This document shows, piece after piece, positions 29,046 to 30,876 of a stretch of 64,000 bases of DNA (position 1 is its first letter; each line of letters begins with the position of its first letter). Both the position numbers and the translations under genes were made by a program. The stretch is from Gemmatimonadota bacterium. GTDB lineage: Bacteria; Latescibacterota; UBA2968; UBA8231. Under the pieces are notes generated by a model. It did no database searches. It saw only the letters and a program-made list of their open reading frames with translations, and had not been told where the DNA came from. The stretch covers positions 47,560 through 111,559 of the forward strand of contig JAYOYH010000011.1 of NCBI GenBank assembly GCA_038153405.1. The letters run 5' to 3'.

Positions 29046-29315
29046 TCACTCGCTGCGTTTTTCAATATGCGCCCGCACCAGTTTAATCATCTCGCCATCC
29101 TCTGCGGCGGCGGCTACCATCGCCTTGAACTCTTCCACTGTGATTTTCACTTCCTCCAGGAAGCGCTGATCAGCCGCTCACGGAAATACGTAATCGCCAA
29201 TGCGCCCCTCGTTGACCGCGCGCGCCTTGTCGGTGATGCGCGCCAACCAAGGGATATCGCCGATGACCATGCCGCGCGCGCGCGGCTTGAAGTCGAGAAT
29301 GTCCCAATCACTCAT
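29046..29315 (-). CDS. DUF5069-like protein, 89 aa, in-frame UGA at codon 46 (candidate selenoprotein)
   Basis: GAGGAG RBS; MSDW...PWLARITDKARA...GDYVFP-UGA-AADQRFLEEV...KRSE*; SECIS-like hairpin follows the UGA. Confidence 0.7.
29141..29177 (-). promoter_or_regulatory. Candidate bacterial SECIS element
   Basis: UGAU-cag-CGCUUCC-UGGA-GGAAGUG-aaa-AUCA; apical loop begins 19 nt after the UGA, with G at loop position 2. Confidence 0.6.
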
Positions 29316-29337
29316 GATTCCCTTTGCTCCTCGTGCA

Positions 29338-30369
29338 TTAATTCGATGTGAAAGCGGCGCGCATGTGGCATATATCCTCATCATCGCCCAACGGCTCGCT
29401 CAGCGCGCGCGCAATGGCCTGCAGCCGTTCACACGGGTTCTGCCAGGCGCGCAGCAGCGCGGCATTGGCCGATTCAAGTGGATGCTCGAGCGCTTCGCAC
29501 AGGGCCGCCGCCGCGTTGAGCAAGAAGGCAATCTGGTGTCCTTCCAGCGCGCGCACGACGCCTGAGTCACCGGTCAACTCAGCGTAGAAACGGGCCGCAC
29601 GCGCATTCAACACAGAGCGCACGACGCCGTTGCAGCGCCCGCTGCCCATGCTAGTAGTATACTGCACGATGCGGCGTTCCGTCCAGTCCCAGCTCAATTT
29701 AGAAAATTCGAGGAAAAATGCCGCACGCACCGGCGATATGACGATGTTGCGCGCGTTGTAATCGCTGCTGCCCAACACGGGCGGACGCCGCGCCAACTCG
29801 GAGCAGAGTGCGGCGATCAGATCGAGTGCGGCGCCGCTCAGCGGTGGGCACTGCAGATGACGCTGCAGCGCATGGCCCCCCCAGAGGGCTCGCTCGCTCG
29901 CCAACTGCCAGGCAACGAGCAGATCCTGCTGGCTACCGCCCGGCGCGACGCGCTGCGCCCACCGCTCGTCGCACATTAGCACACCGTCAATGGAGCGCTG
30001 GTTGCGCATCACATCGCATGCCAACGCGGTATGGTCGCCACAACGCTCCTGCACCAGATCGTCTAGAGTTGCATCGCCGACCCACTCGTAGAAGGCGAAG
30101 CACGCCTCTGAGTCAAGGGCTACCATGGCTGGCACGCGGCAACCGGCTCCGCCCAGCGCGCACAGCACATCGCGCTCGACCTCCAATACGTCGTATGCTT
30201 TGCCGCGCGTCAGGGGGGCGAAGATATGATATTTGACAGCGCGCCTTTTGCCGTCGACGCACAGGCACCACACGCCCGAGTCGATCTCTTCAATGCGCTG
30301 GACGATGCCGCCCAATAGTTCGGGGACGCGTCGCCTGAGATAGGCATCCACCTCCCCGTAGGCTTCCAT
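29338..30369 (-). CDS. APH/choline-kinase-like phosphotransferase, divergent
   Basis: AVKY, VERDVL, VP, YEWVGD.TL, SSDYNARN, FLEF. Confidence 0.65.
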   Translation of the reverse strand: MEAYGEVDAYLRRRVPELLGGIVQRIEEIDSGVWCLCVDGKRRAVKYHIFAPLTRGKAYDVLEVERDVLCALGGAGCRVPAMVALDSEACFAFYEWVGDATLDDLVQERCGDHTALACDVMRNQRSIDGVLMCDERWAQRVAPGGSQQDLLVAWQLASERALWGGHALQRHLQCPPLSGAALDLIAALCSELARRPPVLGSSDYNARNIVISPVRAAFFLEFSKLSWDWTERRIVQYTTSMGSGRCNGVVRSVLNARAARFYAELTGDSGVVRALEGHQIAFLLNAAAALCEALEHPLESANAALLRAWQNPCERLQAIARALSEPLGDDEDICHMRAAFTSN

Positions 30370-30749
30370 TAAGCGTCCTCGGCCTCGAAGACGATGACCT
30401 GTGCGACGAGCTTGCCGGCTTGGTTATTGCGCTCGGGATGCTCGTTCATCGCAAAGAATATGACGCCTTCCTCTTTACAGATAAAATCGCAGCGCGCGCC
30501 GATAGCAAAAGCCTCGCCGCTGCCTATCCGCGCAATGAGCGCACCGACGTTTGCCCCCGGCATGCGATAGCCCTCACCGGCGGGAAAGCGATAGAGCCCA
30601 TCCGCGCCGCACCAGGCAATTTGGTCGCGCATATCGGGCGACCATGTCTCTTCGGCATCGACGACAATCCGCTGTCCTTGCTTCACGCGGATCAGCGAGT
30701 CCTGCCATTGCGGACTCGGGCGTATTGTGCGCATAATAGTGACGGCCAT
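30369..30749 (-). CDS. LecA/PA-IL-like beta-sandwich protein
   Basis: WQDS.IRVKQGQ, GANVGALIARIG, FAMNE...N..G; TAGGAG RBS. Confidence 0.6.
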   Translation of the reverse strand: MAVTIMRTIRPSPQWQDSLIRVKQGQRIVVDAEETWSPDMRDQIAWCGADGLYRFPAGEGYRMPGANVGALIARIGSGEAFAIGARCDFICKEEGVIFFAMNEHPERNNQAGKLVAQVIVFEAEDA

Positions 30750-30876
30750 ACAATCTCCTAAGTGTACACGCGGTGTGCTTCCAATGCAGGGACAGTGATA
30801 ATTAAAAGACGGCCTCGAGGATGTCAACAAACGCGTGAACGACCCGCCCCATGCGCTCTGCGCGCAACGAGGTAGA

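Follow-up and report, generated by a model that had tools for sequence, protein, structure and literature searches.

In bacteria, the SelB-GTP-Sec-tRNA complex binds the apical loop of a SECIS hairpin and delivers selenocysteine (Sec) at a UGA codon, and Sec marks reactive residues. The consensus of bacterial SECIS elements (PMC13188914) comprises a loop of 3–9 nt with a G in one of the first two places, a stem of 4–16 bp, a spacing of 16–37 nt, and an energy of at most −7.5 kcal/mol. Table 1 of that paper (2026) lists 119 prokaryotic selenoprotein families, and PF16798 (DUF5069) is not among the families in its accessible part. The accessible parts of PMC12013277, bioRxiv 10.1101/2022.07.06.499078, and PMC13326102 contain no mention of a DUF5069 selenoprotein. 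A literature search, with most subscription journals outside its range, returned a single unrelated listing for DUF5069 or PF16798, and the papers naming PDB 3OMD, an unknown-function protein of Leptospirillum rubarum that resembles DUF5069, were unrelated among the matches listed. Searches for selenoprotein families, selenocysteine in Poribacteria or Latescibacter, and selenoprotein phosphotransferases gave no listing on DUF5069, and none was found for a small Sec- or Cys-containing partner of an APH-fold enzyme.

The window, i.e., the whole stretch of 64,000 nucleotides analyzed here, carries on its reverse strand a short DUF5069 gene (29046..29315; 89 codons and a stop) predicted, from the homolog column and the Pfam match, to encode a selenoprotein with Sec at position 46 (Sec46). 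It resembles the SelB-dependent genes with SECIS elements inside the reading frame (PMC13188914) in the UGA at a Cys column, the presence of selA, selB, and selD, the 4-nt loop with an early G, the 7-bp upper stem, and the 19-nt spacing; the hairpin of the selD gene in the same genome has the same build. In contrast to known SelB-dependent selenoproteins, the product has one Sec, no CxxU or UxxC motif, and no thioredoxin fold. It is similar to DUF5069 and 3OMD in Pfam score, fold, and the Cys column, but lacks the C-terminal third of the domain, has Sec in place of Cys, and is tied to a kinase-like gene. The protein encoded upstream shares the fold, Lys, Glu, DxxxxN motif, and Mg-site acidic residue with APH enzymes (PF01636), e.g., corramycin phosphotransferase (8AGY) and YP_614837 (3CSV), whereas it is only 11–18% identical to each solved member of this fold and has no Pfam or NCBIfam match. 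The explanation that we favor, with a probability of about 0.78, is that SelB-dependent decoding yields a Sec46 protein serving as a detachable module of the upstream kinase.

Structure and conservation of the short DUF5069 gene

The frame starts with an ATG at 29315 on the reverse strand, behind a putative purine-rich ribosome-binding region seen in the sequence (29320..29332, reverse strand), and proceeds to ...GDYVFP, where codon 46 is TGA (29178..29180, reverse strand), aligned with the family Cys. Past this codon, 43 sense codons (AADQRFLEEV...KRSE) lead to a second TGA at 29048–29046. The standard ORF list of the window ends the frame at the first TGA, and public collections hold the 45-aa truncated product; the first-pass annotation, which had noted both the ORF end at GDYVFP and the continuation to a second stop, was thus correct on the sequence. 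Orthologs are 81–103 aa long and terminate with TAG (47), TGA (25), or TAA (24) in a set of 97 genes, one of which is cut by a contig end. Contigs from RNA libraries (estuary and freshwater runs) span parts of the gene at a depth of 2–17; being contigs, they do not demonstrate transcription and were left out as evidence.

Against PF16798, the read-through product scores 56 bits and the truncated one 22.3 bits, the gathering cut-off being 27 bits, which bears out the DUF5069 motif given in the first-pass annotation. The match spans positions 4–81 of the 133-position model. With the final third of the model missing, the protein does not cover the full domain and is therefore filed as a short variant; no NCBIfam model matches it.

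A protein search yielded 41 matches, of which 39 were aligned at full length and two fragments, one ending at the UGA position, were excluded. Position 46 is occupied by Cys in 38 of the 39 and by Trp in one, so that the placement of Cys at this column, likewise given in the first-pass annotation, holds. Two database proteins, P0040 and P0043, have Trp at position 46, likely because gene callers read TGA as Trp. A wider set comprised 150 distant representatives with 170 domain rows, and in the 153 rows that have a residue at column 46, this is Cys in 111, Ser in 26, and another residue in 16; hence, with Ser or another residue in 42/153 domains, the residue is not essential family-wide. Twelve of the 150 best representatives stop exactly before column 46. 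The pN/pS ratios past the hairpin described below are 0.20, 0.21, and 0.16 in three clades and, judged from these substitutions, the codons beyond the UGA are under purifying selection.

The SECIS-like hairpin

The upper stem-loop predicted downstream of the UGA in the first-pass annotation, CGCUUCC-UGGA-GGAAGUG with an early G in the loop, is present at 29148..29165 (reverse strand). It has 7 bp, and its loop UGGA (29158–29155) starts 19 nt past the UGA with G at the second position; with an energy of −13.2 kcal/mol (43 nt), it fits the consensus of PMC13188914. By itself, the hairpin is within chance (z = −1.46; an equally good fold is reached by 19 of 200 shuffled sequences), and a simple hairpin model is satisfied by 4587 of the 101572 TGA trinucleotides in the genome, so the case rests on comparison across genes. 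A lower stem UGAU/AUCA, also proposed initially, can form here, in the centroid and the 81-nt fold, but just 8 of the 81 TGA genes have all four of its pairs, and we rejected it as a conserved element.

The comparison involved 97 distinct orthologous genes, drawn from 110 loci found by two overlapping searches, with TGA at codon 46 in 81 genes and TGC or TGT in 16. The 12-nt core of the inner stem-loop is identical in 75/81 TGA genes vs. 0/16 Cys genes, and the minimum-energy fold contains the hairpin in 78/81 vs. 3/16; these counts, like those below, refer to distinct genes and not to independent events. The outer pairs covary: the pair +17:+30 is kept in all 81 TGA genes (C-G in 52, G-C in 29) vs. 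7/16 Cys genes, and the pair +16:+31 in 74/81 TGA genes, with four pair types. The Cys genes encode similar residues across the hairpin region with free codon choice, and in one Cys gene nested in a Sec clade (L045) a synonymous change breaks the closing pair of the hairpin. A comparison of the window genome with four congeners shows zero changes in the six hairpin codons, against a pS of 0.56 on the upstream side and 0.73 on the downstream side. Thus, the orthologs with UGA and a conserved hairpin that the first-pass annotation proposed to look for were indeed found.

Two further hairpin types were observed. Four Chloroflexota-type loci (L164, L165, L166, and L179) have the hairpin GCUC-GGN-GAGY after the UGA, and a third type is seen at one locus (L201) of a third clade. 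As an exception, the Cys gene L169 still carries the Chloroflexota-type hairpin. The NCBI entry for a gene of the GCUC-GGN-GAGY type is a truncated 42-aa hypothetical protein from Chloroflexota.

Since the UGA falls on a conserved family Cys and is followed by a conserved hairpin, the frame 29315–29046 (reverse strand) very likely, on the sequence evidence almost certainly, encodes an 89-residue DUF5069 selenoprotein with Sec46. The short DUF5069 proteins appear to be a real and so far unlisted bacterial selenoprotein family, decoded in a manner of known kind.

Distribution and Sec/Cys replacements

In the host phylum, an ortholog is present in 119 of 168 genomes, all belonging to four families of one class, and no ortholog was found among the 36 genomes that represent ten further families. 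One internal TGA is present in 104 of the 119, and 15 have no internal stop. In Poribacteria, 117 of the 121 sampled genomes have an ortholog, with TGA in 113. Metagenomes contributed 79 readable loci out of 80 (TGA in 34, Cys in 45). The selA gene was identified in 102 of the 104 TGA genomes of the host phylum, the two exceptions being about 80% complete and split into more than 800 contigs each; among the 15 sense-codon genomes, it is absent in 3 and present in 12. The UGA orthologs are thus confined to Sec-using genomes, and coding constraint extends past the UGA.

On quick trees, five Sec/Cys changes were counted among 96 rows (at least three of them forced) and eight among 73 rows (at least four forced). 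These trees were built from 78–82 columns after masking the residues of the codon and the hairpin, and they do not give the direction of change; the suggestion of several Sec origins depends only on them.

Selenocysteine machinery and other UGA genes

The genome containing the window encodes selA (560 bits), selB (341 bits), and selD (356 bits), all above the curated cut-offs. The selC gene was not found in the 93%-complete assembly by ARAGORN, RF01852, or an anticodon-arm scan, nor by Rfam around selA, selB, and selD or by BLAST with the congener selC and its flanks. It is present in 30 of 41 relatives and in 4 of 7 congeners, in two of these at contig ends; the tRNA of the congeners is a tRNA-SeC(UCA). 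The first-pass annotation had called for all four genes; hence, the expectation holds for selA, selB, and selD, and for selC in relatives only. 

Three other UGA genes with hairpins were identified in the same genome, all of them known kinds of selenoprotein: a peroxiredoxin with TPGU (G000:C3:51244-51630, reverse strand), a second AhpC-TSA family protein with UPFC (C51:29893-30243, forward strand), and selD with CGU (C77:1726-2649, forward strand). The selD hairpin has a 7-bp stem, a 4-nt loop, and a 17-nt spacing from its own in-frame TGA.

The Sec46 assignment therefore stands against each of the three observations named at the outset as able to refute it. The genome does have Sec machinery (selA, selB, selD), the UGA column is Cys in nearly all full-length homologs, and the close relatives do not have sense codons without a hairpin, as all seven congeners carry both the TGA and the hairpin core.

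Predicted fold and conserved residues

The structural model of the read-through protein has a pLDDT of 75.7, with residues 1–16 modeled poorly. It contains predicted helices at 24–35, 47–55, 60–69, and 73–88, which would put residue 46 at a helix start. Profile comparison matched the protein to 3OMD (E = 4.9e-11) with Cys in the same column, and the model superimposes on the same structure with Z = 10.6 (rmsd 2.8, 77 residues), the next best match having Z = 4.6. Fold searches retrieved nothing beyond 3OMD, and searches of the Atlas retrieved DUF5069 clusters only.

The read-through protein has no Cys besides position 46, so that the CxxU or UxxC motif with a second Cys, typical of thioredoxin-like redox selenoproteins, is absent. 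Among the wider-family rows, R26 is conserved in 164/165, D29 in 162/166, K30 in 164/165, and D49 in 147/153; R32, Y42, and D49 are near-invariant across the 150 distant representatives. No second Cys or His that could serve a metal site is conserved. A redox or metal-binding active site at residue 46, as suggested in the first-pass annotation, would be a more tentative step, given the Ser residues at this column in 26/153 wider-family domains and the lack of a second Cys; the link to the upstream kinase-like gene described below is not part of that annotation.

The upstream kinase-like gene and its neighborhood

A gene for a 343-aa protein of the APH/choline-kinase fold, assigned by fold and motifs (29338..30369, reverse strand), ends 22 nt upstream of the DUF5069 gene. 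Its own start is overlapped by the stop of a 126-aa gene without a Pfam family (30369..30749, reverse strand), likely the first gene of the unit. The latter (family F2) precedes the kinase at 37 of 97 loci and is linked to it only within the window's family of genomes. Ahead of the three genes, a putative promoter of the sigma-70 type (30798..30827, reverse strand) agrees with the consensus at 10 of 12 positions, and the region contains five such sites vs. 1.9 in shuffled sequences.

The kinase-like protein matches no Pfam or NCBIfam model, the APH family included, and Pfam APH is matched by only 4 of its 28 relatives. Its model has a pLDDT of 96.5, with 8AGY as the best fold match (Z = 19.2, rmsd 5.0, 303 residues, 11% identity). 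TvaE and LxmK are among the fold matches, and YihE and Bud32 among the weak ones. In its family, the Lys and the DxxxxN motif are invariant, the Glu is near-invariant, and an acidic residue occupies the Mg site. The protein thus belongs to a distant, unnamed APH-fold family.

An NAD_binding_1 oxidoreductase (F3, a family with noisy clustering) was considered as a dedicated reductant and rejected, as it follows the DUF5069 gene at 34 of 97 genome loci, whereas the window and the other lineages lack it at that position. Its gene lies directly after the small gene in many members of the window's family (e.g., L060:3269-4153) and is absent from the window's genus. In families f2 and f4 (L244, L246, L247), the kinase-like gene is tail to tail with a gene of 900+ aa, which may be glnE.

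Linkage of the kinase-like and DUF5069 genes

A profile search placed the kinase immediately upstream, on the same strand, at 60 of the 97 loci from genomes and at 30 of the 79 from metagenomes. It is adjacent upstream at 13 of 15 Chloroflexota-type loci, the other two having less than 240 nt of upstream sequence, and at all nine loci of the third clade. The kinases of these other adjacent lineages are 17–26% identical to that of the window, and their remaining neighbors differ. At 49 of the 79 metagenome loci, Cys clades among these, the kinase is not adjacent, and several Cys clades have other neighbors.

The two genes also tend to occur together, although the counts are inflated by kinship: among 132 genomes of the class, both are present in 115, neither in 10, the small gene only in 4, and the kinase only in 3. 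In the 56 genomes of families f2–f4, where the genes are not adjacent, the corresponding numbers are 48, 4, 3, and 1. Joint absence includes four near-closed genomes (G017, G030, G077, and G078; 1–2 contigs) from three families, all with selA. In Poribacteria, where the genes lie apart, both were found in 117 of 121 genomes and the same four genomes have neither; these correspond to about two deep lineages by RecA (three of the four placed) and may never have had the genes. One genome that is 90% complete (G012) has the kinase, with its locus intact, but lacks the small gene.

Two clusters of fusion proteins, P0326 (2 members) and P0307 (5 full-length of 9), combine a kinase with a C-terminal short Cys-type DUF5069 domain; by hhalign, their kinase parts match the window kinase family at 99.2 and 98.6%, respectively. 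Complex prediction for the naturally Cys-containing pair of locus L067, kinase P0270 and P0012, gave a score of 0.01 and a mark of 0.32, which counts neither way. Taken together, adjacency, co-occurrence, and fusion suggest that the small protein is a reactive module of the kinase, and a functional coupling of the two proteins is quite probable from this genomic evidence. The tie to an orphan kinase-like enzyme would be new.

Proposed role of Sec46 and alternative explanations

According to the favored explanation, SelB would read the hairpin and insert Sec at the codon-46 UGA, giving the 89-residue protein. Sec46 would lie at the start of the predicted helix 47–55, where the selenolate could be stabilized, in a pocket likely formed, on the model, by R26, D29, K30, R32, Y42, and D49. 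The protein would work with the upstream kinase-like protein as its detachable module, and Cys would take over the role of Sec in genes that have lost Sec or never acquired it. What the module does is more tentative: the mechanism that we prefer is a redox or electrophile switch, formed by the lone Sec46 and tuning the phosphotransferase, a proposal to which we give somewhat less than even odds. A still broader and slightly more speculative extension is a widespread two-part system, in which an orphan APH-fold kinase is set, or its product processed, by a small module with a single Sec or Cys; as part of it, Sec would have been gained repeatedly, with different SECIS hairpins in Latescibacterota/Poribacteria, the Chloroflexota-type lineage, and the third clade.

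It is highly improbable that translation simply ends at the TGA, that this codon arose by a nonsense mutation or a sequencing error, or that it is recoded as Trp or Cys. The failure to find selC in the 93%-complete assembly, the 45-aa product in public collections, and the two records with Trp fit such explanations, but the same TGA recurs in 104/119 and 113/117 genomes of two phyla, selection is purifying past it, TGA is the terminal stop of 25/97 orthologs, the column contains Cys rather than Trp, and the congeners have tRNA-SeC(UCA). That the link of the selenoprotein to the kinase reflects old gene order with no shared function is also improbable, if less so. The genome with the kinase alone (G012), the separation of the genes in Poribacteria and families f2–f4, and the other neighbors in several Cys clades would agree with it; against it, adjacency has been kept in three lineages with differing neighbors and kinases only 17–26% identical, the genes are jointly absent where they are not adjacent (the four near-closed genomes above), and two fusion clusters exist.

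Two other explanations accept the coupling and assign Sec46 a different role; we consider each unlikely, though not as unlikely as mere gene order. Kinase and lyase pairs that act on peptide substrates are known, and Sec46 could be catalytic, the small protein performing a second step (elimination or phosphate transfer) on the phosphorylated product with Arg and Lys binding the phosphate. The invariant R26, D29, and K30 and near-invariant R32, Y42, and D49 over 150 representatives are consistent with this, as are the fusion to the kinase, the fusions of the wider family to cupin, methyltransferase, hydrolase, and kinase domains, and the presence of two peptide-acting kinases, TvaE and LxmK, among the kinase fold matches. 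However, no lyase fold is matched, as only 3OMD stands out, the domain has only 89 aa, 42/153 domains have Ser or another residue at the Sec position, and no third gene or precursor peptide is conserved across lineages. Some APH-fold enzymes phosphorylate proteins, and the selenoprotein might instead be the protein substrate or a metal-binding subunit of the kinase, Sec being a ligand or capping a helix rather than acting as a redox switch. A lone Cys or Sec at a helix start where Ser fits too, the protein-phosphorylating YihE and Bud32 among the weak kinase matches, and the existence of tandem 2x and 3x DUF5069 proteins would suit such a role. Yet repeated gain or retention of Sec under a costly hairpin constraint points to reactivity, the best fold matches of the kinase are small-molecule phosphotransferases, and a metal site has no second conserved Cys or His available. 

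The bacterial selenoproteome would gain a family that occurs in nearly every genome of Poribacteria and of one Latescibacterota-labeled class and that databases store as a truncated fragment. In a domain without assigned function, Sec points to the reactive residue, and the kinase link turns “function unknown” for DUF5069 into a two-protein question, for which the natural Cys pairs and fusions can be expressed without selenium machinery. The two-part system, if true, would represent selenium-dependent control of bacterial phosphotransfer and give DUF5069 its first function. For the evolution of SECIS elements, the paired Sec and Cys genes, whose hairpins have been retained or have decayed, also constitute a clean natural series.

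Other DUF5069 architectures

Proteins with two or three DUF5069 domains are common in the same phyla. The window genome encodes a 438-aa protein of three full-length DUF5069 repeats (G000:C9:65815-67128, forward strand; loci L135–L137), with Ser-type loops replacing the Cys and no TGA. Another triple DUF5069 gene (L163; G015:C1:2154500-2157500, reverse strand) is interrupted by a TGA outside the Cys column, which probably stems from a nonsense change or an error. In the wider family, eight proteins (P0089, P0100, P0101, P0112, P0128, P0140, P0166, and P0175) present fusions of DUF5069 to methyltransferase, cupin, DUF2249, and dienelactone hydrolase domains, as well as to AI-2E transporter, CO dehydrogenase flavoprotein C-terminal, and amino-acid kinase domains.
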